DNA from: an uncultured Bacteroidales bacterium
GTDB taxonomy: Bacteria; Bacteroidota; Bacteroidia; Bacteroidales; P3
DNA length: 64,000 bases
Direction: 5' to 3'
Assembly: GCA_900318835.1 (NCBI GenBank)
Contig: ONLW01000006.1
Location: 12,327 to 76,326, forward strand
Shown in pieces: positions 1-58,631 of this stretch. The notes under the pieces are model-generated. The model saw only the letters and a program-made list of their open reading frames with translations. It was not told the DNA's origin and did not search any database. Within the stretch, counting starts at the first letter, position 1, and each line of letters starts with the position of its first letter. The position numbers were made by a program, and so were the translations under genes.

Positions 1-1
1 G

Positions 2-1738: not shown

Positions 1739-1756
1739 GGGGCAACCTCGCACAAA

Positions 1757-1817
1757 CTACCTACCAAACCCCTATCAACTCCTAACCAACTCCTACCATG
1801 GTAGGTGTTGATAGGTC
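1757..1817 (+). repeat. Intergenic 11-mer-array palindromic element, copy 1
   Basis: CTACCTACCAAACCCCTATCAACTCCTAACCAACTCCTACC-ATG-GTAGGTGTTGATAGGTC. About 4 units of the complement of GTARGGAGTTG face 1.5 units on the other side. Lies between convergent tex and sppA and is followed by a T-rich tail. Confidence 0.8.
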
Positions 1818-1898
1818 TTTCTTTAAGTTAAAATCCTTTGATTTAATGTTTATTAGGAAAGTTTGGCGCAGAATTCTAAATCTGTGCATGCATCGGAG

Positions 1899-3722: not shown

Positions 3723-3731
3723 TGTAAATAG

Positions 3732-3763
3732 AATTGCGGCGAGCCGTTAGGCTCGCCGCAATT
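3732..3763 (-). terminator. Perfect 14-bp stem-loop directly after the fba stop and 10 nt before sppA
   Basis: AATTGCGGCGAGCC-gtta-GGCTCGCCGCAATT. Only a weak U-tail on the minus strand, so it may be a partial terminator or an RNA processing/stability element. Confidence 0.6.
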
Positions 3764-3766
3764 GTT

Positions 3767-6820: not shown

Positions 6821-6822
6821 TT

Positions 6823-25289: not shown

Positions 25290-26711
25290 ATGATGAAAAG
25301 AAAACAAACCATCAAATATATCCTTTGCGATATTCTCGCAGCCATGCTGTCGTGGACGGCTCTCTTTGTATTCCGCAAGCTTGCTCTCGAGCCCCTTTCC
25401 GTTTCCTGCTTCCAACTGTCAACCTTGAATGATTCCAATTACTTCCTCGGCCTCGTTATTATTCCTCTGGGGTGGCTGGCTCTGTATACTGTTCTCGGCG
25501 CCTACCGCGACGTGCTCCGCAAGGCTCGACTCAAAGAACTCCTCGACACCCTCCTGGCGTCGCTCCTCGGTGCCATTGTCATCTTTTTCCTCCTCCTCCT
25601 CGACGACACTGTCCCCACTTATCGTTACCACTACCTTGCTTTCCTTTTCCTCTTTGTTGTCCATTTTGTCCTCACCTATTTGCCTCGACTTCTCATCACC
25701 TCGCAGACTGTCCGCCGCGTCCACTCGCGCCAGATAGGTTTCCCCACCCTCCTTATAGGTTCGGGCAACAAGGCCCTTCATACCTATCTTGATATCGAAA
25801 ATCAGGAAACTTACTCTGGAAATCTCTTCGTGGGCTATGTCAACGTGGGTGTTGGCGGTGAATCATCCCTGCGAAATATCATGCCATGCCTGGGAAAGCT
25901 CGACGATATTCGCCCGCTCATTGAACAGCACCGTATCCAAGAGGTTATTATTGCCCTTGAGGACGACCAGCGGTATCTCACCGCCGATATTCTCCGCACC
26001 CTCAACGCTGCTGCCGATCTCATTGTCAAGATTACACCCGATGCACGCGACCTCATTGTTGGATCCGTCAAGCAGGAGGCTATCTTCCATTCGCCCTTCA
26101 TAGTCATCAACAACCGCCTGATGTCTGAGTGGCAGTACTCCCTCAAGCGCATCGGCGATGTCGTCATTGCCCTCCTGTCTATGATTGTCCTCTCGCCGGT
26201 CTATCTTGTTACGGCCATTATTGTGAAATGCACTTCCCCGGGCCCAGTATTCTACGCACAGGAACGCATTGGCCTCTACGGCAAGCCTTTCTGCATGCAT
26301 AAGTTCCGCTCTATGTATGTCGATGCCGAGTCGACCGGCCCGGCACTTTCCAAGGATGACGACCCGCGCATTACGCCCTTCGGACATTTTATGCGCAAGG
26401 TTCGTCTTGATGAGATACCCCAGTTCTACAATGTCCTCCGTGGTACCATGTCCATTGTCGGACCCCGTCCCGAGCGTCAGTTTTACATCGATCAGATTGT
26501 TAAGCGTGCTCCCGAATACCTGCTGCTGCAGCGTGTAAAGCCTGGCATTACTTCTTGGGGGCAGGTGAAATACGGATACGCTTCGTCGGTCGACGAGATG
26601 GTCGAGCGTCTGCGCTATGATCTTCTTTACCTCGACAATATGTCTATTACCACCGACCTCAAAATTATGGTCTACACCGGAAAGATTATTCTTCAGGGTC
26701 GTGGAAAATAA
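25290..26711 (+). CDS. Polyprenyl-phosphate glycosyl-1-phosphate transferase (WbaP/EpsL-type bacterial sugar transferase)
   Basis: N-terminal TM bundle. C-terminal motifs RIGLYGKPF, KFRSM, PRPERQFY and KPGITSWGQV. Confidence 0.85.
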   Translation: MMKRKQTIKYILCDILAAMLSWTALFVFRKLALEPLSVSCFQLSTLNDSNYFLGLVIIPLGWLALYTVLGAYRDVLRKARLKELLDTLLASLLGAIVIFFLLLLDDTVPTYRYHYLAFLFLFVVHFVLTYLPRLLITSQTVRRVHSRQIGFPTLLIGSGNKALHTYLDIENQETYSGNLFVGYVNVGVGGESSLRNIMPCLGKLDDIRPLIEQHRIQEVIIALEDDQRYLTADILRTLNAAADLIVKITPDARDLIVGSVKQEAIFHSPFIVINNRLMSEWQYSLKRIGDVVIALLSMIVLSPVYLVTAIIVKCTSPGPVFYAQERIGLYGKPFCMHKFRSMYVDAESTGPALSKDDDPRITPFGHFMRKVRLDEIPQFYNVLRGTMSIVGPRPERQFYIDQIVKRAPEYLLLQRVKPGITSWGQVKYGYASSVDEMVERLRYDLLYLDNMSITTDLKIMVYTGKIILQGRGK

Positions 26712-46688: not shown

Positions 46689-47174
46689 ATGACAACAAAG
46701 GTTAAAACACTGACTCATTTTGCGGTGCTGGATACGTTGCTTGTAGTTGCCGCTTGTTTTGTTCCGGCGGCCTCGCATCTCTTCGCTGCGCCGCTCTATA
46801 TGCTCAATCCCATGCTTGCGTTGATGTTGGCAGGCATCCTGGTGGGGCGCGATTGGCGTAATGCGCTGGCGCTGGCTGTGCTCATGCCGTTGGTCTCATG
46901 TCTGGTAGTTGGGATGCCTACAGCTCCCAAGATGGTCTGCATGATGGGAGAACTGGCCGTTGTAGCGGGATTGTTCCATTTGTTTGAGTATCGCCTGGGT
47001 GCAGTGTTGTCGGTTTTTGCGGCCATTGTGGCTGGCAAGGTGGTCTACTATGCCATGAAGGCCCTCATTTTGGCACCAGCCACCTTGGTGGGCACCGAGT
47101 GGTGGATCCAGCTTATGGCTGTTGCCCTTTGGGGGGGATTGTTCGCAATGGTATACAACAGAGTGAAGAAATGA
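46689..47174 (+). CDS. Polytopic membrane protein of unknown function (ECF S-component-like size and topology)
   Basis: About 5 TM segments over 161 aa. ATGA overlap with the next gene. Confidence 0.4.
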   Translation: MTTKVKTLTHFAVLDTLLVVAACFVPAASHLFAAPLYMLNPMLALMLAGILVGRDWRNALALAVLMPLVSCLVVGMPTAPKMVCMMGELAVVAGLFHLFEYRLGAVLSVFAAIVAGKVVYYAMKALILAPATLVGTEWWIQLMAVALWGGLFAMVYNRVKK

Positions 47175-47911
47175 GAAATATTGCAGTGATACTGGCGGGT
47201 GGTACCGGTAGCCGTATGGGTGGACCGGTACCCAAACAATTTCTGCTTTTGGCCGGACGCACTGTGATAGAGTATTCCATAGATACTTTATGCAACCATC
47301 CGGCAATCGACGAGGTGGCCGTGGTGGTGCATCCCGATTGGCGTGGTCGCATGGAAGAGATTGTTGCCGCAAGTTGCAGGGAGAAGCTTAAAAAGATTAT
47401 CGATGGGGGAAACGAACGTTATATGTCGTCGCTCAACGCCATCATGGCTTATATCGATGAGCCCGACGACACCAACTTGCTGCTGCACGATGCTGCACGC
47501 CCCCTGGTGAGTGTGGATATTATCGACCGTGTGACCACAGCACTTGTACGCCATGAGGCTGTGGGTGTGGCTGTGCCCAGTACAGATACCATCTGGGAGG
47601 TGCATCCGGATTTTGATGCTGTGGAAGTGGGGCGTTTTGTGGCCAGAATTCCCGAACGCCGATTGATGTGGCGGGCCCAGACCCCCCAGGCTTTCCGTTT
47701 GCCCCTGATTCGTGACGCCTACCAGCGCGCCTTGCAAGACCCCCAGTTCCAAGCTACCGACGATTGCGGCGTGGTCCGCAAGTACATGCCCGGCACCAAG
47801 ATAACGGTGGTGGAAGGCAGCGACCGCAATATGAAAGTGACCACCCCGCAGGATGTCGCCATGATGGACAGTTTGTTGATAAAAAATAATTATTCGTCTG
47901 TAAGACAATAA
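47171..47911 (+). CDS. ispD: IspD/TarI-family cytidylyltransferase (2-C-methyl-D-erythritol 4-phosphate cytidylyltransferase-like)
   Basis: Motifs [33 protein letters not shown] and NMKVTTPQD. Start at ATG 47171; the listed start is an upstream GTG. Confidence 0.7.
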
Positions 47912-47912
47912 T

Positions 47913-48069
47913 ATGGAGAAAAAAAGTATATGTCGGTATGAGTGCCGATATGATCCATCCGGGTCATCCGAATATAATACATGAGGCTTTGAAGCTTGGC
48001 AGTGTCACGGTCGGTGTGTTGACCGACGAGTCTATTGCCAGCTAAAAGCGTTTGCCCTACCTTACCTAA
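47913..48069 (+). pseudogene. Decayed 5' stub of an HxGH-motif cytidylyltransferase-domain gene
   Basis: ATG GAG, then an A7 run causing a +1 shift. The shifted frame reads [48 protein letters not shown]. There is an in-frame TAA at 48043 where homologues, as I recall them, have Tyr. Similarity ends at 48069. Confidence 0.6.
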
Positions 48070-48110: not shown

Positions 48111-48866
48111 ATGAAAGAACCGAAAATAATTGGAGTCATTCCTGCGAGATACCAGTCTTCTCGATTCCCCGGTAAACCGTTGGCTGATGTTTGTGGCAAA
48201 CCCATGATATGGTGGGTGTATCAGCACGCTTCACAGGTGAAGTATTTTAACGAGTTATATGTCGCTACTGACGACCAGCGCATCTATGATGCTTGTGTTG
48301 CTAATGACATGAAGTGTATCATGACTTCTACCAGTCATCGTACTGGTACTGATCGTATAGGTGAGGTGGCAGAAAAAATTCCTGCTGACCTCTATGTGAA
48401 CATTCAGGGTGACGAACCCCTGATGGAACCGGAGGTGATGGAAAAGGCTATCCTTCCGTTCTTTGATAATCCAGAGCTTCAGGTATCAAACCTGATGACC
48501 AAGATTAACGATCCTGTGGATGTGGTTAATTTCACCGTTCCCAAGGTTATTACCAACAAGGAAGGTATTGGTATTTATCTGACACGCTCTACGGCTCCTT
48601 ATCCCAAGGGCAGTATTGACTATGCTTACTACAAGCAAGTATGCGTGTACGGTTTCACTCCTGCCGCATTGAAGTTCTACTGTGACTATGGTAAGAAGTA
48701 CGGCAAGGCCAAGATTGAAGCCATTGAAGATATTGAGATTCTCCGCTTCATCGAGAACGGCTACAAGGTACAGTACATTGAAGTGGATAGTGAGACCGTG
48801 GCGGTTGATACGCCCAACGATTTAAAGAAGGTTAATGAGATAATGGCAGCCAAGCTGCAGAAATAA
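48111..48866 (+). CDS. kdsB: KdsB-family 3-deoxy-manno-octulosonate (ulosonic acid) cytidylyltransferase
   Basis: IGVIPARYQSSRFPGKPLADVCGKPMI, HRTGTDR and VNIQGDEPLM motifs. Sugar specificity not determinable. Confidence 0.75.
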   Translation: MKEPKIIGVIPARYQSSRFPGKPLADVCGKPMIWWVYQHASQVKYFNELYVATDDQRIYDACVANDMKCIMTSTSHRTGTDRIGEVAEKIPADLYVNIQGDEPLMEPEVMEKAILPFFDNPELQVSNLMTKINDPVDVVNFTVPKVITNKEGIGIYLTRSTAPYPKGSIDYAYYKQVCVYGFTPAALKFYCDYGKKYGKAKIEAIEDIEILRFIENGYKVQYIEVDSETVAVDTPNDLKKVNEIMAAKLQK

Positions 48867-48870
48867 AGCT

Positions 48871-50406
48871 ATGCAAATACTGGATTGCACATTGAGGGAC
48901 GGTGGTTATTACACCAACTGGGACTTCAATGCACAGGTTGTGGACGCTTATATAAGCGCCATGAAGGGACTACCGATTGACTACCTTGAACTGGGTTACC
49001 GGAATAACCCTTTGAAGGAGTATAACGGAAAGTTTGGCTATTGCCCGCTTTCCGTGCTGAAACATATTCGTGAAAACTCCAAGCAGAAACTGGCCGTAAT
49101 GCTCAATGAGAAGAGTACCAAACCAGAGGATTTGGACAAACTCATTGCGCCATTGAAAGGTGTAGTGGATATGATCCGTATGGCGGTTGACCCTAAAAAT
49201 CTTGAGCGTGCTGCTGTTTTGGCTGAGAAGGTAAAGGAGTACAGTTTCGAAGTGGCTTTCAATGTGATGTACGTGTCCAAGTGGGACCAGTATGAAGGCC
49301 TGTTTGAAAAGCTTCCTCGCTTGAATGGTACTGTGAAGATTTTTAATATGGTTGACTCCTATGGTAGCGTAACTCCGGAGGAAGTAAAAGCCATCATTGA
49401 GAAAATAAAGAAGTATCTTACCTGCCAAATTGGTTTCCACGGTCACAATAATCTTCAGTTGGGTCTCATTAACACACTAACCGCCATTGAATGTGGTGTT
49501 GACAGTGTGGATGCAACCATCCTGGGTATGGGTCGTGGTGCCGGCAACTTGAACATGGAACTGCTGCTGACATTTCTTAACAAGCACAAAGGTCTCAAAG
49601 TAAACTTCAATGAGTTAGGTGATGCTATTCAGGCGTTCACACCGCTTTATGAGAAGTACCGTTGGGGAACCAGTCTGCCGTACATGATTTCTGGGGCGAA
49701 CTCCTTCCCTCAAAAGGAGGTGATGGATTGGGTAAGTAACCGTGTTTATTCTTTCAACAGTATTGTTCGTGCGCTTGACAACAAGAAGGACAAGAAAGAA
49801 GACAACGCCAAGTATCCTGTTTTAGAAGTCACTAAGAAGTACAAACAAGTTTTGGTAATTGGTGGCGGTAACACAGTTGCTGAACATGTGGAGGCTATTC
49901 ACGAGTATCTGGATAAGAATCCTGATACGGCTATTGTGCTTTCTACTGCCCGTCATGCCAAACTGTTCCTGGGCCGCAAAGAGCCTGTGTTCTACTGCTT
50001 GGTTGGTAATGAAGGTCATCGCTTGACAGCAAATGTGGGTAAAGCAAAGTATAATGGAACTTGCATCCTTCCTCCTTATCCTCGTACTATGGGAACAGAG
50101 GTGCCGGAGTATGCAGAATCCAGCACATTTGAACTGAAGGAGATTTCCTTTATTGATAACTACAAAGATTCTGTAACTACCATTGCTATCCAGTTGGGCC
50201 TGAACCTGACAGACGGAGAAGTATATCTGGTCGGATATGACGGTTATCCTGGAAGTGTGTTGTCAGAGAAGGAAGTTGCCCTTACGCACGAGAATAATGA
50301 GATTTTCATGGGCTATGCATTGGCTCGTGGTTCTCAGATGAAGTCGCTTACACCGTCTATCTACAGGACGCTGGATGTGACATCTATTTATCAGTTAATT
50401 GACTAA
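48871..50406 (+). CDS. DRE-TIM metallolyase (HMGL-like pyruvate aldolase) fused to an unassigned C-terminal domain of about 200 aa
   Basis: N-terminal LDCTLRDGGY and metal site IGFHGHNN...GMGRGAGN. The C-terminal part has a Rossmann-like VLVIGGGNTV. Confidence 0.6.
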   Translation: MQILDCTLRDGGYYTNWDFNAQVVDAYISAMKGLPIDYLELGYRNNPLKEYNGKFGYCPLSVLKHIRENSKQKLAVMLNEKSTKPEDLDKLIAPLKGVVDMIRMAVDPKNLERAAVLAEKVKEYSFEVAFNVMYVSKWDQYEGLFEKLPRLNGTVKIFNMVDSYGSVTPEEVKAIIEKIKKYLTCQIGFHGHNNLQLGLINTLTAIECGVDSVDATILGMGRGAGNLNMELLLTFLNKHKGLKVNFNELGDAIQAFTPLYEKYRWGTSLPYMISGANSFPQKEVMDWVSNRVYSFNSIVRALDNKKDKKEDNAKYPVLEVTKKYKQVLVIGGGNTVAEHVEAIHEYLDKNPDTAIVLSTARHAKLFLGRKEPVFYCLVGNEGHRLTANVGKAKYNGTCILPPYPRTMGTEVPEYAESSTFELKEISFIDNYKDSVTTIAIQLGLNLTDGEVYLVGYDGYPGSVLSEKEVALTHENNEIFMGYALARGSQMKSLTPSIYRTLDVTSIYQLID

Positions 50407-50407
50407 A

Positions 50408-51442
50408 ATGAAAGTAGTAACCTTTGGTGAGATAATGGTGCGCTTGGGAGCACCCGATTACCTCAAGCTTATTCAAGCGAATAGGTTTGATGTGAGTTAT
50501 GCCGGTGCAGAGGCCAATGTGGCCGTATCACTGGCCAATTATGGTTTGGAAACGGATTACATCACATGCCTTCCGGACAATCCTATTGCAGAACGTTGCA
50601 TAATGGATTTACGTGGGCATAAGGTGGACGTTGACCATATTCAGCGAACCGGTAAACGTATGGGTATTCTCTATCTGGAAACAGGTAGCAACGCCCGTCC
50701 ATCAAAGGTTTACTATGATCGTGAGGATAGTTCCATTGCAACAGTAGCTCCTGGTTCCATTGACTGGAACGAGATTTTGAAGGATGCCACTTGGTTCCAC
50801 TGGACGGGCATTACTCCAGCTCTTTCAGCTAATGCGGCAGCAGAGTGCCTTAAGGCCATCAAGACTGCCAATGACCTGGGAGTAACCGTGAGTTGTGACA
50901 TCAACTACCGTGGAAATCTGTGGAAGTATGGAAAGACTGCTGCTGAAGTGATGCCTGAGATGGTAGCTGGTTCTGACATCATTCTTGGAAATGAAGAAGA
51001 TTGTGAGAAGGTGTTTGGCATCAAGCCTAAAGATTTTGATGCAGCCAAGACCAATGGAAATGTTGACCAAAGCAGTTTCCTGAGTGTTTGCCAGCAGATG
51101 AAGGAGAGATTCCCTCGTTGTAAGAAACTGGTGGTTACGCTCCGTGGTGCCATCAATGCCAACCATAATACTTGGGGTGGTGTGCTTTACAATGGTAAAG
51201 AACTAATAGAGTCCCGTCGCTATGATATTACAGATATTGTAGATAGAGTAGGAGGAGGTGATTCCTTTATGGGTGGACTCATCTTTGGACTGCTCCATTA
51301 TCAGGATGACCGCAAAGCTTTGGAGTTTGCTACAGCAGCAAGTTGTTTGAAGCATACTTTGAAAGGTGATTATAACTGGGTTACCGTCCAAGAGGTGGAG
51401 AACCTGATGGGCGGTGATGCGAGTGGAAGAGTGAAAAGATAG
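50408..51442 (+). CDS. PfkB-family sugar kinase, 2-dehydro-3-deoxygluconokinase-like
   Basis: VVTFGEIMVRL, GAEANVAVSLANYG and VDRVGGGDSFMGGLIFGL motifs. The ATG at 50408 lies 1 nt after the upstream stop; the listed start is TTG 50399. Confidence 0.8.
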   Translation: MKVVTFGEIMVRLGAPDYLKLIQANRFDVSYAGAEANVAVSLANYGLETDYITCLPDNPIAERCIMDLRGHKVDVDHIQRTGKRMGILYLETGSNARPSKVYYDREDSSIATVAPGSIDWNEILKDATWFHWTGITPALSANAAAECLKAIKTANDLGVTVSCDINYRGNLWKYGKTAAEVMPEMVAGSDIILGNEEDCEKVFGIKPKDFDAAKTNGNVDQSSFLSVCQQMKERFPRCKKLVVTLRGAINANHNTWGGVLYNGKELIESRRYDITDIVDRVGGGDSFMGGLIFGLLHYQDDRKALEFATAASCLKHTLKGDYNWVTVQEVENLMGGDASGRVKR

Positions 51443-51598
51443 AAGATTATTAATAAAACGTGACGTTTAAATGCGATAATCTTGAGCGATGGCGGATGAG
51501 GTCTAATGTGAAATGACTGATTATGTTATCCAATAGAACAGCGGGAACGGTGTGGCTCAAGTGTCTGTAAAGTTGAAAAATGAAAACCAACTATAATT

Positions 51599-52660
51599 AT
51601 GGATAGACATTGTAAACAGCAGTTAGAGAAGTTTGGAATGAAAGTGGAGGATGTTACACACGTATGCATCGCGCCCACATTATATCCATTGTTGCAATAT
51701 TTACTGCTTATGGAAGATGATATTGCATTCCGTCATACTTTCTATTTTGTTAATGAACTCATTCCCGAAAAAGTTCGTACACAACTTCCTTGTCAGTGTT
51801 TTAACTATTTTGGGAAAGAATTATCACATAAGCTAAACAGGAGGGTGATAAAACTTAAACTTAGGTTTTTCAAATACGTTGATTTCCCTTTTCTAAAAAC
51901 TGCAGAATTTTTCGCGTATGACCTACCTTATGGTAGTCTTTGCATAGGAAATCATAAATACAATTTGCTTCCAGATGCTCCTAATTGTATGACATTAAAC
52001 TCCCAATACGACAGTGCGGAATACATCCGAATGCAAAATCGTGCGAATTCGTTGATGGGCAAAGTTCAACGTATAGTATATGGCGACCTATTCGTAAATT
52101 ATTTGGGACATAACAGCCAATGCAAAGCAGTATATCTCACAGAAGAGAACACAACACCTGTTTTAAATGGTAAAACTGTAAGTATTCAGACTCTACCTTC
52201 GTTATGGGAAAAATCTTCAAAAAGGAAAAAAGATTTTATTTTAGGACTATTTAATGTAACTGCTACAGATATTACATTATTAAATAGTCGTCCAAATCTT
52301 TTCTTCTCACAGCCTCTATTGAATGATTGTGGTTTAACCGAGTCTGAATACGTAGATATCCTTACGAAAATATTCAATAATTACCCAACCGATAGTTTAA
52401 TAATCAAAACACATCCGAGAGATAAGTTTAATTACACTAAACATTTCCCCAATATATTGGTGTTCTCTAAAGCAATTAGCAGTCAGTTGCTTTATATTAC
52501 AGGGGTGACCCCACAGACAATAATAACTATTTCTTCTACCGCCATTGAAGGGTTTCCTGAGTCAATTGCATGTGACTATTATGGAATTCATATTCATCCA
52601 AAACTGGAACATTTTTTTGGAAATGAATACCGACCAGCGCGAAGTGTAACATATAAATAA
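51599..52660 (+). CDS. Putative glycosyltransferase, GT52-like (sialyltransferase-type HP motif)
   Basis: N-terminal VCIAPTLYPLLQYLLL resembles the GT52 TPLQ block. IIKTHPRDKF is an HP motif. Lowest G+C in the window. Assignment is from memory only. Confidence 0.4.
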   Translation: MDRHCKQQLEKFGMKVEDVTHVCIAPTLYPLLQYLLLMEDDIAFRHTFYFVNELIPEKVRTQLPCQCFNYFGKELSHKLNRRVIKLKLRFFKYVDFPFLKTAEFFAYDLPYGSLCIGNHKYNLLPDAPNCMTLNSQYDSAEYIRMQNRANSLMGKVQRIVYGDLFVNYLGHNSQCKAVYLTEENTTPVLNGKTVSIQTLPSLWEKSSKRKKDFILGLFNVTATDITLLNSRPNLFFSQPLLNDCGLTESEYVDILTKIFNNYPTDSLIIKTHPRDKFNYTKHFPNILVFSKAISSQLLYITGVTPQTIITISSTAIEGFPESIACDYYGIHIHPKLEHFFGNEYRPARSVTYK

Positions 52661-52664
52661 AATT

Positions 52665-53231
52665 ATGCTTTCTAAAATCATTGCCAAGTTAAAATCACTT
52701 TTCCTATATCCTTTTCAATTCAAAAAGTTTGGGAAGAAGAGTAGGATAGACAAGCCGCTGCATATTGACGGTAAAAAGTATATTGAAATATCTGATCGGG
52801 TATATGTACAGCCATATACATGGTTGGCTTGCCAGCCGCTTACAGGATGTAGTAATCCACTCCTTGCCATAAGTAAGGGATCTGTTATCGGAAATTATAA
52901 CCACATATACGCCACACAGAGGATAGTTATCGAAGATCATGTCCTTACCGCAGATAAAGTGTATATCTCAGACAACCTGCACGGTTATGCCAATCCCGAC
53001 ATCCCCATCCTCCAGCAACCTATAAGGCAAATTGGGGAGGTTCGTATCGGAGAAGGTAGCTGGCTTGGCGAAAATGTATGTGTTATCGGGGCTTCTATCG
53101 GGAAGCACTGCACCATTGGTGCAAACTCCGTGGTTACGCATGACATTCCCGACTACTGCGTTGCCGTCGGTTCTCCGGCACGGGTCATCAAACAATACAA
53201 TTTTGAAACCAAACAGTGGGAAAAGAAATGA
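52665..53231 (+). CDS. Hexapeptide-repeat (LbH) O-acetyltransferase
   Basis: Hexapeptide repeats VRIGEGSWLGENVCVIGASIGKHCTIGANSVV and C-terminal VGSPARVIK. Confidence 0.8.
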   Translation: MLSKIIAKLKSLFLYPFQFKKFGKKSRIDKPLHIDGKKYIEISDRVYVQPYTWLACQPLTGCSNPLLAISKGSVIGNYNHIYATQRIVIEDHVLTADKVYISDNLHGYANPDIPILQQPIRQIGEVRIGEGSWLGENVCVIGASIGKHCTIGANSVVTHDIPDYCVAVGSPARVIKQYNFETKQWEKK

Positions 53232-54259
53232 AAAAAGTCCTTATCATATCCTCGCCTTTTTATGACTACCAAATCAGCGTGGGTAGGGCGTTTGAGGAGC
53301 TCGGCTACCAAATAAAGATTGAGACATATGACGATCCTATTCATCCGTTTAGGGGTTTGCTGAAATGGAGGCACAAGTTCGCTCGCGATAAGGAATCTCT
53401 TCGTGCACAAAGCCGAGCTAAGTATGATGCCTACATTAAGCAGGTATATGATAACTACCAACCCGACATTGTGTTCTCCTACAACGGTACTATTCTGCTG
53501 GATGAACGTTTGGACTATTTTAGGCAGAAGTCCAAGGTGGTCCTTTGGATGTACGACAGTGTGCAACGCCCGGATAGACTCCGGTGTGAGAAGCATATCG
53601 ACCATGCGGATGCGGTATTCTGTTTTGAAGAAAGGGACGTGGACTACTACGCCAAACAGGGCAAGACTGCATATTTCCTCCCGCTGGCTTGCGATACGTC
53701 AGTCTACCATCCTCTGCCTAACAACGACAAAGGTATTGATATCCTCTATGTGGCGACATTGTACACTAGCGCCAAACGTATGCGTCTCATTAAGCAGGTG
53801 GTCAACCATTACCCGCAGGCGAAGATTCTTGTCTATGGATGGTATAAGCCTTTTGTGAAGATGCCTATAAAGTGGCTGTTCCGCGAAAAGAGGGATGTGT
53901 TCAAAAACAAGAACATCCCGCCTGCCAAAGTCAACGAGCTGTTTGCCCGTACCAAGGTGGCTCTTAACATACATCATGAACAAACCTTCCACGGGGCCAA
54001 CCAGCGCCTGTTTGAGGCTTGCGGCGCTGGCGTGTATCAGGTTTGCGACGCCAATCCCTACATCGAATCACTCTTTCCTAACGGCGAAGTGGGACTGTAC
54101 CACAATGAAGAGGAAATGTTCGAGCGGATAAGTTGGGCATTGGATGAGAATAACCGTGAAGAGCGAGAGAGAAGAGCCTATGCAGCATACAATATTATTA
54201 TAGAACAACATACCTTCACCATCCGTGTAAAGGAGATGCTCAAAGTTATCGGAGAATAA
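53228..54259 (+). CDS. Glycosyltransferase, CgeB/DUF3880 plus GT1-like C-terminal domain
   Basis: MKKVLIISSPFYDY... and C-terminal NQRLFEACGAGVYQV. ATGA overlap with the acetyltransferase stop; the listed start is GTG 53216. Confidence 0.55.
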   Translation: MKKVLIISSPFYDYQISVGRAFEELGYQIKIETYDDPIHPFRGLLKWRHKFARDKESLRAQSRAKYDAYIKQVYDNYQPDIVFSYNGTILLDERLDYFRQKSKVVLWMYDSVQRPDRLRCEKHIDHADAVFCFEERDVDYYAKQGKTAYFLPLACDTSVYHPLPNNDKGIDILYVATLYTSAKRMRLIKQVVNHYPQAKILVYGWYKPFVKMPIKWLFREKRDVFKNKNIPPAKVNELFARTKVALNIHHEQTFHGANQRLFEACGAGVYQVCDANPYIESLFPNGEVGLYHNEEEMFERISWALDENNREERERRAYAAYNIIIEQHTFTIRVKEMLKVIGE

Positions 54260-54276
54260 TAAAACAAAATAAGTAT

Positions 54277-55107
54277 ATGAAAGTTCTAGTTACAGGAGCC
54301 AACGGATACATAGGCAGCCATGTTGTATCGGCATTGCTGGATAAAGGTTGCGAAGTGATCGCTTGCGACTTGGTGACAGACAATATTGACCGCCGTGCAA
54401 CTATGGCACAAATGAATCTGTTTGCCGATGATTATAATGACATATACAATAGATTGGGTGCGCCAGATGTATGTCTCCATTTGGCATGGCGTAATGGCTT
54501 TGTACATAATGCAGATACTCAGATGGGTGATGTGTCGGCACATTACAATTTCATTGCTGCACTAATAAAGCAGGGACTCAAGCACCTTGCAGTGATGAGT
54601 TCAATGCATGAGGTCGGCTACTGGGAAGGAATGATAGACGAGAATACCGCTTGCAACCCCATGTCACAGTATGGCATCGCCAAGAATGCCTTGCGGCAGT
54701 CGTTTACACTCCTATGCTCACAGAATAATGTCACGCTGCAGTGGCTAAGAGGCTATTACATCATAGGAGATGATAGCAAGAACCATTCTATCTTTACCAA
54801 GATTTGTCAGGCTGAAGCGGAAGGAAAGAAAACATTCCCGTTCACTTCTGGTAAGACCAAATATGATTTTATATCAATCAAAGAACTTGCCAATCAAATT
54901 ACTGCCGTGGTGATGCAGGACAAGGTAAATGGGATTATTAACTGCTGCTCGGGTAAACCGGTTACTTTGGCCGAACAGGTTGAGACGTATCTAAAGGAAC
55001 ATGGATTCAAGATAAAACTTGAATATGGAGCCTTCCCCGATCGTCCCTATGATTCACCTATCATCTACGGCGACAACAGTAAGATAAAGGCGATAATGTC
55101 AGTCTAA
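54277..55107 (+). CDS. NAD-dependent sugar epimerase/dehydratase (extended SDR)
   Basis: VTGANGYIGSHV Rossmann motif and YGIAK catalytic YxxxK. Confidence 0.8.
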   Translation: MKVLVTGANGYIGSHVVSALLDKGCEVIACDLVTDNIDRRATMAQMNLFADDYNDIYNRLGAPDVCLHLAWRNGFVHNADTQMGDVSAHYNFIAALIKQGLKHLAVMSSMHEVGYWEGMIDENTACNPMSQYGIAKNALRQSFTLLCSQNNVTLQWLRGYYIIGDDSKNHSIFTKICQAEAEGKKTFPFTSGKTKYDFISIKELANQITAVVMQDKVNGIINCCSGKPVTLAEQVETYLKEHGFKIKLEYGAFPDRPYDSPIIYGDNSKIKAIMSV

Positions 55108-56190
55108 TATTGTACGGAACTTGTCGACCATTCTGTCGGAGGAGTATTGGTTGGCGAAGACTTCGCGGCTGTAGGCGTTGAATCGGGGGCGTGGCTTCTG
55201 GCAGAAGCCGTTGATGTTGACGGCAAATTCGTCGGCTGTCAGGCAGCAAGCACCGGCTTTCGTGTAGTCGAGTTCGTAGCCACTCCAGGCTTCGGGGGTG
55301 CCTATGATGTTCTTGCCGTACATGAGACTCTCACAGGTTTTTACTTTCATACCGCTGCCTTTGAAGATGGGCAGCACCATGATGTCGGCGGCCTCGAACA
55401 GCGGCTCGAGGTCAGGCACATTGGAGAGTACTTCGATATCGGGCCTCATCCAGTCGGCTTCCCTCACCTTTTCCATTCCTTTGCCCACAATCTGCATGCG
55501 GATATTCACCTTTGGCAGGACATTTCTGACGAACCATTCGATACCCTCGACGTTGGCGGGCATATAGGCTCCGAGGAACATGCAGAGTGGCGGATTCCTG
55601 ATGGATTCGGTGGGGTAGGAGTCGCGTTTGTAACGGTCAACGAAGGCAATGGGAATGAGCTGGTCGGCATGTCGATGGTAGCGGCGGAAGAGTTCGTCGT
55701 CATCACGCTTGGACAGGGCGATGGTGCGGTCGGCATAGCGGCAACTCCAACGGTCGTTGCGGTCGGCACAGGGTACTGTCAGCCACCGCATGGGGTTCAT
55801 CGTTCCCGAATATTTAGCAGAGAAATAGATGGTTTCCACATTATGGAAGAAACCGACTACGCGCCCTTTATAGCCAGTTTCTTTAAGCCGTTTGGCAATG
55901 ATTCCGAAGACCGAACGGTCGACGAATACCACGTCGTAGGTCTGGGCCCGTGATACAATCTCGCGGACGCGTCCGGGGGTCAGTCCGAAGTAGTAGCCCA
56001 AGGGCATATAAACGATGCCTTGCAGGTATTCTCCAAGGGTGCGGTGGTGGGCTTCGTCGTGGATGAAGTAGGTGTCCACGTTCTCCTCACCGGCAATTTG
56101 TGCCAGTACCGTACGGTTTAGCTCGCTGGCCTTTTCTCCCCCTTCGGGAACACCGCGGGTCTTCTTGTATCGAACAGTCAGTATCTTCAT
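55099..56190 (-). CDS. Glycosyltransferase family 4 (GT-B, group 1)
   Basis: C-terminal donor-binding region VLPIFKGSGMKVKTCESLMYGKNIIGT. Its 3' end overlaps the convergent epimerase gene by 9 nt. Confidence 0.7.
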   Translation of the reverse strand: MKILTVRYKKTRGVPEGGEKASELNRTVLAQIAGEENVDTYFIHDEAHHRTLGEYLQGIVYMPLGYYFGLTPGRVREIVSRAQTYDVVFVDRSVFGIIAKRLKETGYKGRVVGFFHNVETIYFSAKYSGTMNPMRWLTVPCADRNDRWSCRYADRTIALSKRDDDELFRRYHRHADQLIPIAFVDRYKRDSYPTESIRNPPLCMFLGAYMPANVEGIEWFVRNVLPKVNIRMQIVGKGMEKVREADWMRPDIEVLSNVPDLEPLFEAADIMVLPIFKGSGMKVKTCESLMYGKNIIGTPEAWSGYELDYTKAGACCLTADEFAVNINGFCQKPRPRFNAYSREVFANQYSSDRMVDKFRTILD

Positions 56191-58631
56191 TTTTTGTTTT
56201 TACGGTACACAAGGAATATGCTGCCCGCTATCGCCAATACCAGCAGGATGCCGAAGATGATGTTGACGGTGATGAGGCGGTAGAGGCCAGGGGCTTCGCA
56301 GCGGAACTCGATGACGTGGTCGCCGGCGGGAATTACCATGGCGCGGAGGATGTAGTTGGCGCGGACATATTCGGCAGGTTTGCCGTCGATGTAGGCACGC
56401 CAGTCGGGGGCGTAGTACACTTCGCTGAAGACTGCCAGCTGGTCGGCAGAGGCATGGCTGCGGTACTTCACATAGTCTGTCTGGTAGGGCACCTGGTGCT
56501 CCATTTCGATGGTGGCAGTGGAGTCAATACTGAACGTCGTGCTCAGGGATTCGAACTCATGGGTGTTGACGACAGCCGTCGTCGCAGGGTTGAGGTCGTT
56601 GAGGGCCAGAATCTCCTCATTGGCATTTTGCACGGGCTTTACTTCACGCACGAACCAGCAGTTGCCCAGAGCATCGGGGTTGCGCTGAATCTGTCCGTTT
56701 TGCATTACAATGTAGCGTGTGTTGAGCATGTTGAGCACGCCCATGTTGATGTGGCGGCCGAGGTAGAAGTCGATAATGTCTTGGTAGCGACGCAGTTTTG
56801 CGGCGTGGTAGCCACCCACCTGATGGTGGAATGCCGAGGGACGCGAGTCGTTGAAGGTGTTCACCGAGAGGTCGAACACGCGGTAGTCCTTGTCACCATT
56901 CTGTGCGGCGAGGGCGTCCAGAGCGTCGTCGGTCTGATTACGGTACAATGCCATGCGGCTGGGGTCAGAGAAGTTGCTCTCGTCGAGGTAACGACGATCC
57001 ACGCGCCACAGGTCGATGAGCACCAGCACTATTAGTGCACCGATGATGATGCCGGCCTTCTTCACTTTTTCATTCACATAGAGCCAAATGGCAACGGCAG
57101 CCAGCAGCACGAAGGCTAGGCTGCGCCAGGAATCGCTGCGGAGCAGAGCTGCACGGTCGCTGACGAGGACGCTTTTGATCATATCCCACTGGTTGCCGTA
57201 TTGTGCGGCCATCTGCTGGTCGCTGGCACCGGTGTAGCTGAACGAACCGCTCAGTAACAGCACTACGAGGATGAGCCCGCCGACTACGCCGGTGGCGATG
57301 TACAGGCTGCGGTTCAGTACCTTGCGGTCGATGGGGCTCTTCTTGTCAAATACCGCTTTCAGCGCCAGCACGGCCATCACCACCATTGTCACGTTGGCAA
57401 TCACCAGACTCATGCTGGGTGTACGGAATTTATTGTACATTGGCAAGTGGTGGAAGAGAAACTCATTGAATGCCATGAAGTTGTTTCCCCACGACATGAG
57501 CAATGCCAGAAGGGTTGCAATTAGCAGCCACCAGCGTTCGGGACCTTTCACCACCAAGCATCCCAGCACAAAGAGAAAGATGATGATGGCGCCGAAGTAG
57601 ACGGGTCCGCTGGTGAAGGGCTGGTTGCCCCAATAGAGCGGAGCTTGCTCGCTGTGGAAGGTTTTATAGAAGGCACTTTCGGTGCCCACTTTTTCTCCGC
57701 TTCCGCCACCCATGGCGCCGGGGACGAGGAGTGTGTAGGTCTCGCCCACACCATAACTCCAACTGAAGGCATAGTCGATATCCAGACCGGTGGTTTCGCC
57801 TCCGATGGAGGCAGGCTCGCTGTCGTGATAGAGGTCTTCTGGGGTCACCGTGATGTCGTTGCCGCCACGCATGGTGTATTTGGCGTATTCCTGATTGGAG
57901 AAGAGGAGTGCTGCGTTGCCGCCGATGGCGAGGGCGCTGCCTGCCACCAGTATGGCGACGGCTATCAGGAATCCTTTCACCTGCTTCTCTTTAACTGCGA
58001 AGACGGCATATACCAGTCCGAGAATCACTCCCGCCAGCATAGTGTAGTAGGTAATCTGGATGTGGTTGAAGGCAATCTGTATTCCCAGAGCAAGGGTGAA
58101 GAGGATACCCCCCCACAGCCATTTGCGTTTGAAGAGCAATACCATGCCTGCCAATATCGGGGCCATCATGGCCAGCGACCATGCTTTGGTGATGTGACCG
58201 GCCTCGATGATGATGATGTTATAGCTTCCCAGGCCGAAAGCCAGTGCACCCAACAGGCTCAACCACGGCCCAGCGCCGAAAGCCATCAGGCAGATGTAGA
58301 AGCCCAGCAGGTAGAGGAAGAGTACTCCAATGTCGCGTCCCCGTCCGGCAAACTGGAGGTTCAACACATTTTTTATCGTGGTAAACACGGAATGGTGGTT
58401 CACGCCAGTTGTAATCTGGTAGCCGGGCATACCGCTGAACATTGAACTGTTCCATATTGTCGGCTCGCCAGTCTTTTCGTGCAGGTCGATTTGCTCCTTG
58501 GCCATAGCTTCCCACTTCATTGAGTCGCCCTGTAGCATTACTTTCCCATTCAGTGCGGGGGCCATGTAGATGCAGGCCGCAATCAACATCGCGGCCACAA
58601 TTCCAGCATGAATAAAAATGTTTTTCTTCAT
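56187..58631 (-). CDS. YfhO-family polytopic membrane protein (GT-C-like)
   Basis: About 13 TM segments followed by a C-terminal extracytoplasmic domain and a terminal TM. ATGA overlap with the GT4 gene. Confidence 0.75.
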   Translation of the reverse strand: MKKNIFIHAGIVAAMLIAACIYMAPALNGKVMLQGDSMKWEAMAKEQIDLHEKTGEPTIWNSSMFSGMPGYQITTGVNHHSVFTTIKNVLNLQFAGRGRDIGVLFLYLLGFYICLMAFGAGPWLSLLGALAFGLGSYNIIIIEAGHITKAWSLAMMAPILAGMVLLFKRKWLWGGILFTLALGIQIAFNHIQITYYTMLAGVILGLVYAVFAVKEKQVKGFLIAVAILVAGSALAIGGNAALLFSNQEYAKYTMRGGNDITVTPEDLYHDSEPASIGGETTGLDIDYAFSWSYGVGETYTLLVPGAMGGGSGEKVGTESAFYKTFHSEQAPLYWGNQPFTSGPVYFGAIIIFLFVLGCLVVKGPERWWLLIATLLALLMSWGNNFMAFNEFLFHHLPMYNKFRTPSMSLVIANVTMVVMAVLALKAVFDKKSPIDRKVLNRSLYIATGVVGGLILVVLLLSGSFSYTGASDQQMAAQYGNQWDMIKSVLVSDRAALLRSDSWRSLAFVLLAAVAIWLYVNEKVKKAGIIIGALIVLVLIDLWRVDRRYLDESNFSDPSRMALYRNQTDDALDALAAQNGDKDYRVFDLSVNTFNDSRPSAFHHQVGGYHAAKLRRYQDIIDFYLGRHINMGVLNMLNTRYIVMQNGQIQRNPDALGNCWFVREVKPVQNANEEILALNDLNPATTAVVNTHEFESLSTTFSIDSTATIEMEHQVPYQTDYVKYRSHASADQLAVFSEVYYAPDWRAYIDGKPAEYVRANYILRAMVIPAGDHVIEFRCEAPGLYRLITVNIIFGILLVLAIAGSIFLVYRKNKK

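Follow-up and report, generated by a model that had tools for sequence, protein, structure and literature searches.

The closest described counterparts of the locus analysed here are the Kdo pathway (KdsD, KdsA, KdsC and KdsB followed by a Kdo transferase, with the KpsF/KpsU paralogues) and the nonulosonic acid pathways (NeuB/NeuA, PseI/PseF, LegI/LegF and the KDN-9-P synthase/phosphatase of B. thetaiotaomicron), the latter combining CTP_transf_3 activation with transfer by a sialyltransferase-family glycosyltransferase. KdsA, which has a DAHP_synth_1 fold, is PEP-dependent, and all of the nonulosonic pathways employ a PEP-dependent NeuB-fold synthase; indeed, to our knowledge, the biosynthesis of 3-deoxy-ulosonates is always PEP-dependent. 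Likewise, all CTP_transf_3 substrates known to us are 2-keto-3-deoxy sugar acids, and we know of no CMP-transferase with a phosphorylated ulosonate as substrate. The DRE-TIM class II pyruvate aldolases DmpG, BphI and HsaF are found in the context of aromatic and steroid catabolism; pyruvate aldolases are reversible.

The stretch of DNA under study (the window) comprises 64,000 nt of an uncultured rumen Bacteroidales genome, and all coordinates are window positions. It contains a four-gene cassette that displays the condense–activate–transfer logic of the Kdo pathway (with a phosphatase step in most relatives) and the activation and transfer steps of the nonulosonic pathways, but has neither a KdsA nor a NeuB-fold synthase. 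Its probable product is a keto-deoxy sugar acid activated with CMP, a pyruvate aldolase replacing the PEP-dependent enzyme. With moderate confidence, we regard it as a horizontally acquired sugar-supply-plus-transfer module within a hypervariable surface-glycan island, in which an aldolase, a CMP-transferase and a GT52 glycosyltransferase would act in succession.

Composition of the cassette

Four consecutive plus-strand open reading frames occupy positions 48111–52660, and the identities proposed in an earlier note (a CMP-transferase, an aldolase fusion, a PfkB kinase and an HP-motif transferase) were all confirmed by Pfam. The first gene (48111..48866) encodes a KdsB/KpsU-like CMP-transferase of 251 residues (CTP_transf_3; 154.7 bits). 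The second encodes a 511-residue fusion of a DRE-TIM (HMGL-like) metallo-aldolase domain (48871..49806, residues 1–310; Pfam HMGL-like, 87.6 bits) and a C-terminal domain of about 200 residues (49807..50406), which is Maf/MptE (DUF115)-like according to AF2 and Foldseek. These are followed by a KDG-kinase-like PfkB kinase (50408..51442, alternative start 50399; 344 residues from the ATG; Pfam PfkB, 124.5 bits) and a 353-residue GT52 glycosyltransferase (51599..52660; Glyco_transf_52, 68.5 bits versus a cutoff of 26.1). The genes are spaced by 2–4 nt, with the exception of a 156 nt gap 5′ of the GT52 gene. The AT-richness that had been claimed was borne out: cassette genes have a GC content of 34.7–47.0% (GC3 0.29–0.57), the GT52 gene being the lowest at 34.7%, versus 53.7–55.5% (GC3 0.60–0.74) for the flanking genes.

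The O-acetyltransferase, second glycosyltransferase and epimerase noted downstream were confirmed on the plus strand at 52665–55107, as a WbbJ-like hexapeptide-repeat O-acetyltransferase (52665..53231; domain and profile searches), a Glyco_trans_1_2/DUF3880 glycosyltransferase-like protein (53228..54259; domain search) and an SDR-family NAD-dependent epimerase/dehydratase (54277..55107; domain and profile searches). Domain and profile searches between 47.9 and 56.2 kb retrieved no KdsA/NeuB-type synthase and no flippase, polymerase or export gene, in agreement with the absences (a PEP-dependent synthase; wzx, wzy and export genes) asserted earlier, and genes that would supply a nine-carbon precursor (aminotransferase, dehydratase or NeuC-type) are missing from the cassette.

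Several components differ from their counterparts in the Kdo pathway: the place of KdsA is taken by the metallo-aldolase fused to a Maf/MptE-like domain, that of the phosphatase by a kinase, and the transferase belongs to GT52 and not to GT30 or the KpsS/KpsC type. The CMP-transferase, in which QGDEP and VDTP motifs are visible, scores 279 against the NCBIfam KdsB subfamily model PRK13368 (cutoff 255) and lies below the TIGR00466 kdsB equivalog cutoff (148.4 versus 155.2). Its closest match in the PDB is the E. coli capsule CMP-Kdo synthetase KpsU (1gq9; E 2e-48), to which it is about as similar as KdsB paralogues are to one another, and like KpsU it is an accessory, glycan-locus copy, since 29 of the 30 syntenic relatives lack the cassette and the LPS Kdo transferase gene, waaA, is located elsewhere in the window, outside the cassette. 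Copies of the enzyme that are 95–99% identical are present in other CPS loci.

The fusion aldolase and its predicted chemistry

The aldolase domain is most closely related to the N-terminal domain of B. vulgatus BVU_2661, an orthologue of which only the aldolase domain was solved by structural genomics (PDB 3dxi; E 3.5e-144, 64% identity over the aligned region, TM 0.93) and for which we found no function, ligand or paper. The next best matches, in sequence as well as in fold, are the 4-hydroxy-2-oxovalerate aldolases (DmpG, HsaF and AmnG; Foldseek E 1e-15 to 1e-16). Although identity to DmpG, BphI and HsaF is only about 20%, the fold and the Arg–Asp and His-x-His metal/enolate motifs are conserved, and R9, D10, H190 and H192 are invariant among the orthologues from 71 genome loci with a full-length fusion aldolase (39–92% identity, mostly Bacteroidota). 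Unlike DmpG, the window aldolase has neither a partner acylating aldehyde dehydrogenase (DmpF) nor the DmpG communication domain, and its context is one of biosynthetic glycan loci instead of catabolism.

In the proposed pathway, the DRE-TIM domain would add a metal-stabilized pyruvate enolate to an aldehyde to give a 4-hydroxy-2-oxo acid, a 3-deoxy-2-ulosonic acid, in a step that takes the place of a PEP-dependent KdsA/NeuB-type synthase. The KdsB/KpsU-like enzyme would then couple this acid with CTP to form a CMP-glycoside, from which the GT52 protein would transfer the acid to an acceptor made by the neighbouring glycosyltransferases and altered by the acetyltransferase and the SDR protein.

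The aldolase is far below every NCBIfam equivalog cutoff (87.7 versus 286 for the 4-hydroxy-2-oxovalerate aldolase model), and its nucleophile could therefore be other than pyruvate. The superfamily includes acyl-CoA-dependent synthases, and models for synthases of homocitrate, isopropylmalate and citramalate hit the domain with E-values of 1e-13 to 1e-19; moreover, the site that we take to be equivalent to the catalytic histidine of DmpG is Gly-Tyr in the fusion-aldolase family, and some modules include additional enzymes of C–C bond chemistry, namely HpcH/HpaI in five of the 71 loci and a TPP enzyme resembling acetolactate synthase in two relatives described below (L171 and L173). A Claisen-type synthase of this kind, or an enzyme using another 2-oxo acid, would give a hydroxy-acid, branched or not a carbohydrate, that becomes a substituent after activation with CMP. 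We consider this very unlikely, given the precedence of the 4-hydroxy-2-oxovalerate aldolases among the matches after 3dxi, the substrate range of CTP_transf_3 enzymes as generally known, the sialyl- or Kdo-transferase-like character of the linked glycosyltransferases and the KDG-specific type of the kinase partner.

The C-terminal domain (AF2 model, pLDDT 94.6, pTM 0.91) is predicted to adopt the nucleotide-binding fold of Maf/MptE proteins. Its top Foldseek match in the PDB is the Maf glycosyltransferase 5mu5 (E 1.8e-4, prob 1.0, TMq 0.58), followed by the archaeal 6-hydroxymethylpterin diphosphokinase (HPPK) MptE (8sd5), the likeness being at the level of the fold only (11–14% identity, TMq 0.45–0.58); the Pfam MptE-like model gives E 0.14 and 12.3 bits versus a cutoff of 34.6. 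A G331–G333 triplet, a GYDGY core and E474/N475 are near-invariant in the 71 orthologues, the invariance of LPPYPR and LSEKE is limited to the 35 closest homologues, and the two-domain architecture is kept in relatives at 21–25% identity. This conservation, the resemblance to a flagellin glycosyltransferase and the fact that a sialyl- or Kdo-transferase-like glycosyltransferase is recognizable near only 37 of the 71 aldolases would be compatible with a bifunctional synthase–transferase, in which the C-terminal domain itself transfers the activated acid (or acts as a kinase-like enzyme) and the GT52 protein adds another sugar or a second copy. However, the TM-score is modest at 0.58, the Pfam match is far under threshold, a stand-alone glycosyltransferase follows the module in the window and in many other loci, and C-terminal regulatory domains are common on DRE-TIM synthases, LeuA and CimA being examples, which makes a bifunctional fusion quite improbable. 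The strong conservation of a domain with putative roles only was counted against the proposed aldolase–CMP-transferase–GT52 pathway.

Genomic partners of the aldolase and the kinase

All 71 fusion-aldolase loci are polysaccharide or glycan loci. Of these, 68 contain a CTP_transf_3 gene, which directly follows the aldolase gene in 59, an adjacency that spans several phyla and an alphaproteobacterial plasmid. Only 13 loci have NeuB-like genes, which lie apart in legionaminic-type blocks that include a CMP-transferase of their own, and in 56 the aldolase–CMP-transferase pair is found without a NeuB/KdsA-type synthase. A HAD_2 hydrolase is encoded in 50 loci (at position +2 in 41) and a PfkB kinase in seven, the two never together. 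An aldolase and a CMP-transferase usually followed by a HAD phosphatase, of the HAD_2 β-PGM type and not of the KdsC type, suggest a KdsA/KdsC/KdsB-like logic. The neighbouring glycosyltransferases belong to sialyl- or Kdo-transferase-like families, namely GT29, polyST-like, Capsule_synth-like and MptE/WaaZ-like ones, and GT52 in the window. We found no literature on such a pair, which is a widespread and apparently undescribed module of bacterial surface-sugar loci; the non-canonical aldolase route to a CMP-ulosonic acid put forward in the earlier note thus gains support from comparative genomics.

Two thirds of the partner CMP-transferases are PseF-like and not KdsB-like; the pairing of one aldolase family with these two subfamilies was counted against the proposal. 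It also bears on whether the window enzyme is the conserved LPS copy of KdsB, a reading at variance with the PseF-like type of partners elsewhere, with the other genes held by 29 of 30 syntenic relatives and with the separate waaA. An ordinary sugar made by an unusual route may also be considered: the cassette could boost the supply of CMP-Kdo in the manner of kpsF/kpsU of E. coli group 2 capsules. The aldolase would join pyruvate to arabinose or arabinose-5-P to give Kdo or Kdo-8-P, and the GT52 protein would add Kdo. The proximity of the CMP-transferase to capsule-specific KpsU, its passing of the NCBIfam KdsB subfamily cutoffs and the islands of L171 and L173, which join a KpsF arabinose-5-P isomerase and a KdsC phosphatase to an HMGL-like aldolase, are in line with this. 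On the other hand, KpsF or KdsC is near none of the 71 fusion aldolases, most partner enzymes are not KdsB-like, the kinase keeps the residues that recognize the six-carbon acid KDG, and these bacteria, with waaA in the window, already have a supply of CMP-Kdo for their LPS, so that a role in Kdo supply seems unlikely.

The kinase is closest to KDG kinases, matching that of T. maritima over its whole length (PDB 2afb; E 2e-89) and the kinase half of NF041633 with 472 bits. It shares with KdgK of hexuronate and semi-phosphorylative Entner–Doudoroff metabolism the PfkB fold and, by position, all of the listed KDG-recognition residues (PMC5334617). In contrast to KdgK, its clade is tightly conserved (at least 120 clusters at 92–97% identity) and locked into CPS-locus triads: all three contexts sampled were CMP-transferase–aldolase–kinase triads in CPS/glycan loci, and eda, kduI, kduD and uxa genes were never adjacent to the kinase in them. 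The kinship with KDG kinases and the resemblance of the aldolase to catabolic DmpG-type enzymes could mean that the two are catabolic 2-keto-3-deoxygluconate genes lying by coincidence beside a glycan CMP-transferase and glycosyltransferase. This is contradicted by the context data and is extremely improbable: the co-occurrence with hexuronate catabolism that had been considered did not materialize, no uronate or KDG catabolic gene being found in any aldolase or sampled kinase context, the aldolase is adjacent to a CMP-transferase gene across phyla, the triad moves between different CPS loci as a unit at 92–99% identity, and its genes in the window are only 2–4 nt apart.

The presence of a HAD phosphatase in most relatives implies that their aldolases use a phosphorylated aldehyde. 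Position 228 of the aldolase is Lys or Arg in 48 of 50 HAD-linked versus none of eight kinase-linked enzymes, a correlation that represents two independent kinase lineages only, one of them in Verrucomicrobia. The kinase of the window type is restricted to a gut/rumen subset of aldolase modules, in which the conserved basic residue is lost (K228 to N). In this variant the acceptor aldehyde would be nonphosphorylated and the product a short-chain acid resembling KDG; the kinase may then trap or modify this product, or drain any excess of it. The kinase and the phosphatase share one slot and have opposite chemistry, and kinase-type cassettes are without any phosphatase gene; this, too, was counted against the proposal, as were the lack of a known CMP-transferase for phosphorylated ulosonates, the reversibility of pyruvate aldolases and the use of PEP in all known 3-deoxy-ulosonate biosynthesis.

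The hypervariable island and module exchange

The syntenic relatives (n = 30) were compared between the flanks MiaB–MORN–IspD and YfhO-like–7TM_HD. The left anchor, outside the acquired cassette, is a conserved IspD-type cytidylyltransferase gene (47171..47911, plus strand; Pfam IspD 177.6 bits; TIGR00453 187.8 versus a cutoff of 181.3; 53.7% GC), syntenic in all 30; the right anchor encodes a conserved polytopic membrane protein of 814 residues (56187..58631, minus strand), weakly YfhO-like (Pfam YfhO 20.9 bits versus a cutoff of 28.5). The space between them holds other genes in the 29 relatives that lack the cassette.

The GT52 protein carries IIKTHPRD, and this K-x-H-P-R motif is kept by 68 of 74 homologues; the Neisseria sialyltransferase Lst is a member of the same family. 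Membership of GT52 and the conserved motif speak against the alternative that the 353-residue protein has no glycosyltransferase fold. In every sampled context, the homologue lies immediately 3′ of a sugar module that includes a CTP_transf_3 gene. Co-occurrence of all four genes as a block was not borne out: triad copies at 92–99% identity in different CPS loci and a host-foreign GC content mark the CMP-transferase–aldolase–kinase triad as mobile, and these three genes constitute the conserved unit. The kinase is confined to the gut/rumen subset, and the GT52 gene is an element of the island.

Two relatives (L168 and L169) share orthologues of GT52 (69% identity), the hexapeptide acetyltransferase (73%, same position in L168), Glyco_trans_1_2 (84%), SDR (80%), GT4 (57%) and YfhO-like (68%) proteins, and in the triad position have NeuB, a KDN9P/KdsC-like phosphatase, a CMP-transferase and two oxidoreductases instead. 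A pseudaminic acid set precedes the GT52 gene in L170, so that nonulosonic acid modules occupy the triad position in relatives of the island. In L171 and L173 the order is KpsF (295 bits), CMP-transferase, HMGL-like protein, TPP enzyme, KdsC (152 bits) and GT52, with no KdsA in either island. Between IspD and the YfhO-like gene, the orthologous GT52 genes are preceded by sugar-supply modules that are interchangeable. L094 and a Leisingera plasmid encode a distant two-domain HMGL-like protein together with a KdsB-like CMP-transferase and a HAD protein; these sets and those of L171 and L173 represent independent aldolase-based versions.

The right anchor is syntenic in relatives, and its YfhO-like homologues carry PF09586 in L170, L171 and L173. 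A GT4-type glycosyltransferase gene identified by domain search (55099..56190, minus strand; host-like GC of 54.6%) forms the right edge of the island; it is semi-conserved and present at 78–81% identity in four of the 30 relatives (L083, L100, L102 and L105).

Gene content of the cassette and the status of its CMP-transferase

The cassette occupies positions 48111–52660 of the window on the plus strand and consists of four tightly packed ORFs, encoding a CTP_transf_3 CMP-transferase of 251 amino acids (48111–48866), a 511-residue fusion aldolase (48871–50406), the first ~310 residues of which form an HMGL-like/DRE-TIM barrel, a PfkB kinase of 344 amino acids (50408–51442) whose closest relatives are 2-keto-3-deoxygluconate (KDG) kinases, and a 353-residue Glyco_transf_52 protein (GT52; 51599–52660) containing IIKTHPRD. 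Downstream of GT52 come genes for a hexapeptide acetyltransferase resembling WbbJ, for a Glyco_trans_1_2 protein and for an SDR epimerase, in that order; on the opposite strand, and converging on them, are a GT4 gene and the gene for a membrane protein of 814 residues with weak similarity to YfhO. The four consecutive genes and the succeeding O-acetyltransferase, second glycosyltransferase and epimerase had been proposed in an earlier note, and the ORFs and domain matches bear out both proposals. Its description of the cassette as AT-rich also holds, with a GC content of 34.7–47.0% in the cassette genes compared with 53.7–55.5% in the flanking genes and a sharper difference still in GC3. Likewise, profile searches detected no DAHP_synth_1 or NeuB domain (KdsA, NeuB/PseI/LegI) among the cassette proteins, in agreement with the claim that the cassette lacks a PEP-dependent synthase. 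The contigs identical to the window derive from bovine rumen metagenomes, and on them a 35-residue ORF is called (47938–48045, plus strand) in the AT-rich 199 bp spacer between the IspD gene and the cassette.

The CMP-transferase matches Pfam CTP_transf_3 with 154.7 bits (cutoff 22.6) over profile positions 1–215 of 217. It scores above the NCBIfam cutoffs for KdsB subfamilies (PRK13368, 279 versus 255; PRK05450.1-5, 255.5 versus 193) and below those of the curated KdsB equivalogs (TIGR00466, 148.4 versus 155.2; PRK05450.1-1, 163 versus 281). Were it the ordinary LPS kdsB, a possibility raised in the earlier note, it would be expected at the same place in related genomes; the gene is missing in 29 of the 30 syntenic relatives. 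Moreover, the GC content of the gene is foreign to the host, it moves between loci together with the aldolase, and in other genomes a PseF-like CMP-transferase takes its place as the aldolase partner. The LPS Kdo transferase WaaA is encoded separately in the window by a waaA/KdtA-type gene (18677–19918, plus strand; Glycos_transf_N, 152 bits). Since 30 kb separate this gene from the cassette downstream of it, and its neighbour is an Omp85 gene (19944–22313), the LPS Kdo machinery of the organism is taken to be distinct from the cassette. On these genomic grounds, the kdsB-like gene of the cassette is read as an accessory gene.

The fusion aldolase and its genomic partners

The N-terminal domain of the fusion aldolase (Pfam HMGL-like, 87.6 bits) is orthologous to that of Bacteroides vulgatus BVU_2661, whose structure (PDB entry 3dxi) comes from structural genomics and has been without an assigned function since 2008. 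After 3dxi, Foldseek ranks the class II pyruvate aldolases DmpG, HsaF and AmnG as the closest structures, ahead of isopropylmalate and homocitrate synthases; DmpG and HsaF match with E values of 1e-15 to 1e-16. Residues Arg9, Asp10, His190 and His192 are invariant in the 71 fusion-aldolase orthologues, forming a conserved Arg-Asp pair and a His-x-His motif, which we take to be the DRE-TIM enolate and metal residues equivalent to Arg17/Asp18 and His200/His202 of DmpG. From the closest characterized relatives, we infer that pyruvate would serve as the nucleophile. The protein does not reach the equivalog level of 4-hydroxy-2-oxovalerate aldolase (TIGR03217, 87.7 versus 286), and none of the 71 neighbourhoods contains an aldehyde dehydrogenase as acylating partner (DmpF/BphJ). 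The aldolase family is large, with more than 4000 homologues, and an exhaustive phmmer search (E ≤ 1e-30) returned ~695 representative clusters at 50% identity, the best 150 of which are mostly 490–540 residues in length. Its members include proteins of human-gut Bacteroides and Phocaeicola, of Prevotella in the rumen, of many Bacteroidota from the environment and of roseobacter plasmids; a Priestia plasmid match was rejected as a short DmpG-like gene of a different subfamily in an aromatic-catabolism context.

For the C-terminal ~200 residues a confident fold was predicted (pLDDT 94.6), with the Maf flagellin glycosyltransferase 5mu5 as the top match (E = 1.8e-4, probability 1.0, TMq 0.58), followed by the archaeal MptE HPPK 8sd5 (E = 4.5e-3), a similarity at the level of the fold only. 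The Pfam MptE-like profile scores 12.3 bits on this domain against a gathering score of 34.6 (E = 0.14). A GGG triplet, a GYDGY core and Glu474/Asn475 are near-invariant in the 71 orthologues, and LPPYPR and LSEKE are invariant in the 35 closest homologues. DRE-TIM synthases of the LeuA type have regulatory domains; by analogy, a role as CMP-sugar sensor is conceivable for the Maf/MptE-like domain, as is, alternatively, a catalytic one.

Scanning a single genome for each species, followed by our own ORF clustering, yielded 71 fusion-aldolase loci, mostly in Bacteroidales, Chitinophagales, Flavobacteriales and Cytophagales, with stray occurrences in Burkholderiales, Verrucomicrobiales, Helicobacter and SAR86 MAGs. 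The aldolase has a CTP_transf_3 gene beside it in 68 of these loci, directly downstream in 59, the partner being KdsB-like in ~26 and PseF-like in ~48. A HAD_2 hydrolase is present in 50/71 loci (at +2 in 41) and a PfkB kinase, at the slot of the HAD, in 7/71, the two never occurring together. The conserved unit is composed of the aldolase, a CMP-transferase and a third enzyme. A NeuB-like synthase lies within 10 kb in only 13/71 loci, in separate legionaminic-type blocks with their own CMP-transferase. The module lies in polysaccharide loci, which also encode Wza/Wzc, flippases, ABC transporters and numerous glycosyltransferases, and the glycosyltransferases nearest to it (GT29, polysialyltransferase-like, Capsule_synth-like and MptE/WaaZ-like) are of families using CMP-ulosonates. 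No KpsF, KdsC or TPP-enzyme gene adjoins the fusion aldolase; as such sugar-phosphate supply genes were not found beside it, arabinose-5-phosphate is not assigned as its substrate. The four cassette genes do not form one conserved block, a co-occurrence that the earlier note had considered: GT52 is missing from all 71 fusion-aldolase loci and from the contexts collected for the triad of CMP-transferase, aldolase and kinase (L160–L167).

A row of ~26% identical aldolase, CMP-transferase and HAD genes on a plasmid of Leisingera sp. M527 (NZ_CP081038, locus L175, 6986–9988) indicates that a triad is present in Alphaproteobacteria too. Its products, a 536-residue aldolase-domain protein, a KdsB-annotated CMP-transferase and a HAD hydrolase, are annotated as 'aldolase catalytic domain-containing protein', '3-deoxy-manno-octulosonate cytidylyltransferase' and 'HAD family hydrolase', and the row stands in a glycan locus between glf/GT2 and GDP-fucose genes. 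In five Flavobacteriia-type loci (L025, L036, L044, L046 and L055, at about 11540–12280 in each), an HpcH/HpaI-family aldolase (116 bits), a second pyruvate-aldolase-type enzyme of the module, is encoded between the fusion aldolase and the CMP-transferase.

The mobile triad and the variable island

The kinase has homologues in at least 120 database clusters at 92–97% identity. These many close matches first raised the suspicion that it was the host's own kdgK, an explanation that was rejected because the sampled matches all lie in triads: three of three contexts have the CMP-transferase, aldolase and kinase genes together in different CPS loci, one of them in the complete genome of Prevotella communis. 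The cassette-like GC3 of the kinase gene (0.43) also counts against a housekeeping kdgK. Across most contexts the triad proteins are 92–99% identical to those of the window, and the kinase version of the module is a mobile triad. The exception is the aldolase of P. communis (L160, CP091790, 5672–9035), which is 59% identical and stands with a CMP-transferase and a kinase of 98% and 92% identity, respectively; it appears that the aldolase allele was exchanged while its neighbours were conserved. Directly upstream of the P. communis CPS locus, six TIR-domain genes (ThsB_TIR, TIR_2 and LD_cluster2) follow each other in a run (1–4417) that may be a Thoeris-like defence cluster.

In the Sulfolobus solfataricus enzyme KDG is recognized by Gly34, Tyr90, Tyr106, Arg108, Arg166, Asp258 and Asp294 (PMC5334617). 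Gly33, Tyr89, Tyr103, Arg105, Arg168, Asp279 and Asp321 of the cassette kinase correspond by position alone to the FlKin numbering (PMC5334617), so that each recognition residue given there for characterized KDG kinases has a counterpart, and are kept in all eight cassette kinases, except for Tyr89, which is Phe in locus L013. An association of the aldolase and kinase with hexuronate catabolism, which according to the earlier note would speak against a role in glycan synthesis, was not encountered: no KDPG aldolase or hexuronate catabolism gene lies near the kinase in the contexts examined, all of which are triads in polysaccharide loci.

The alternation of HAD and kinase is mirrored in the aldolase itself, in which three alignment columns distinguish the proteins linked to a HAD from those linked to a kinase. 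Position 228 does so most clearly, with Lys or Arg in 48 of 50 HAD-linked aldolases and Asn or Glu in all kinase-linked ones, including that of the Verrucomicrobia locus L049, an independent lineage; gut Bacteroidales loci with an aldolase and a CMP-transferase only carry the kinase-type residues. From the alignment, we read this change, seen in two lineages, as a probable sign that a residue binding phosphate was lost once the acceptor aldehyde came without a phosphate group.

The GT52 protein, which the earlier note had described as a transferase with a sialyltransferase-like HP motif, indeed scores 68.5 bits against Glyco_transf_52 (cutoff 26.1) and contains KTHPR. It has no meaningful sequence match to solved structures; its homologues form 74 clusters, 68 of which have K-x-H-P-R. 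In 30 rumen and gut relatives (IspD 67–86% identical), the flanks MiaB–MORN–membrane protein–IspD and YfhO-like–7TM_HD enclose an island of 2.8–8 kb that varies from genome to genome in length and content, and the cassette was found in one fragment only, identical to the window. Sampled GT52 homologues always occur in islands of this kind, right after a CTP_transf_3-containing sugar module (directly upstream in 5/5 contexts examined), a CMP-ulosonate being the putative donor. The GT52 gene belongs to the island and not to the conserved gene unit.

The sugar module ahead of GT52 is exchanged between islands. In L168 and L169, which share orthologues of the window for GT52 (69%), the acetyltransferase (73%), GT1_2 (84%), the SDR (80%), GT4 (57%) and the YfhO-like protein (68%), the upstream module comprises NeuB, a KDN-9-P/KdsC-type phosphatase, a CMP-transferase and two oxidoreductases; in L170 a pseudaminic-acid set precedes GT52. 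In L171 (937–7071) and L173 (879–7071), IspD is followed by the arabinose-5-phosphate isomerase KpsF (295 bits), a PseF-like CMP-transferase, a 344-residue HMGL-like aldolase, a split acetolactate-synthase-like TPP enzyme, KdsC (152 bits) and GT52, with no KdsA in either module. The island of another relative, L094, contains a distant two-domain HMGL-like protein, a KdsB-like CMP-transferase and a HAD. The module swaps show HMGL-like aldolases more than once at the synthase position of Kdo-like pathways, and they are the strongest evidence that the job of the triad would be to supply a CMP-activated ulosonic acid to GT52.

Many islands of the syntenic relatives L082–L109 contain a TagD-like CTP_transf_like cytidylyltransferase, an Asn_synthase-like protein, DUF362 and a CDP-glycerol glycerophosphotransferase (Glyphos_transf), a set that resembles a machinery for glycerol-phosphate decoration in the style of teichoic acids, here in a Gram-negative bacterium.

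Proposed pathway and wider significance

What is observed is the identity of the domains, the intactness of their motifs, the linkage statistics, the replacement of modules, and the mobile and accessory character of the genes; on this basis, an aldolase-based CMP-ulosonate model is a reasonably probable account of the cassette. The aldolase would join pyruvate and an aldehyde to give a 3-deoxy-2-ulosonate, which the CMP-transferase would convert to its CMP-glycoside for transfer by GT52. Where the module contains a HAD, this would take the role of KdsC, and a sugar phosphate is the probable aldehyde. One possible role of the kinase is to phosphorylate the product, trapping or modifying it; the CMP-transferase would then have to accept a phosphorylated ulosonic acid, for which we know of no precedent. 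Another is to pass any surplus of the KDG-like acid on to central metabolism. A role as supplier upstream of the aldolase fits poorly, given that no phosphatase gene belongs to the cassettes and that the basic residue at position 228 is lost.

A more specific reading, which we consider unlikely, is that the triad makes an unknown nucleotide sugar, a CMP-activated six-carbon 3-deoxy-hexulosonic acid (KDG/KDGal type or its 6-phosphate), from pyruvate and a triose, with the free acid as the substrate of the KdgK-like kinase. A 'mini-sialic acid' would in that case be exposed on the surface of many Prevotella and Bacteroides of rumen and gut, and the aldolase would have in its Maf/MptE-like domain a partner of a new kind, either sensing the CMP-sugar or catalytic. 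A six-carbon ulosonic acid is found in a capsule as the hexulosonic acid side branch of E. coli K3 (bioRxiv 10.1101/2025.01.29.635457); the triad DNA had no match in E. coli genomes and so gave no link to this capsule.

The synthesis and transfer of a CMP-ulosonic acid from a variable surface-glycan locus is a known type of system; what sets this one apart is a non-homologous condensing enzyme and, in the window, an unexpected kinase. To our knowledge, the characterized routes to CMP-keto-deoxy acids (Kdo, sialic, KDN, pseudaminic and legionaminic acids) all begin with a PEP-dependent synthase of the KdsA/NeuB fold. Under the aldolase-based model, this step would instead be solved in a new biosynthetic way, by a non-homologous enzyme that uses pyruvate; such a replacement may lead to an undescribed sugar and would be overlooked by genome mining with NeuB or KdsA. 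In full-text searches of the openly accessible literature, neither the aldolase family nor the module was described, and there was no publication on 3dxi or BVU_2661. The phase- and strain-variable surface-glycan loci that house the module shape interactions with phages, the immune system and the niche. Testable handles are offered by position 228, by the alternation of phosphatase and kinase and by a host that is in culture and completely sequenced.

Elsewhere in the window, a WbaP-like initiating sugar-phosphate transferase (Bac_transf and CoA_binding_3; 25290–26711, plus strand) and a 346-residue NTP_transferase (10062–11102, plus strand) are possible parts of other glycan pathways. The minus strand encodes a gingipain-like Peptidase_C25 protein (29210–31531), which has a propeptide and, at its C-terminus, a sorting domain for type IX secretion (Por_Secre_tail), and an HmuY haem-binding protein gene adjoining a TonB-dependent receptor gene (4883–7446), a haem-uptake pair typical of Bacteroidales.
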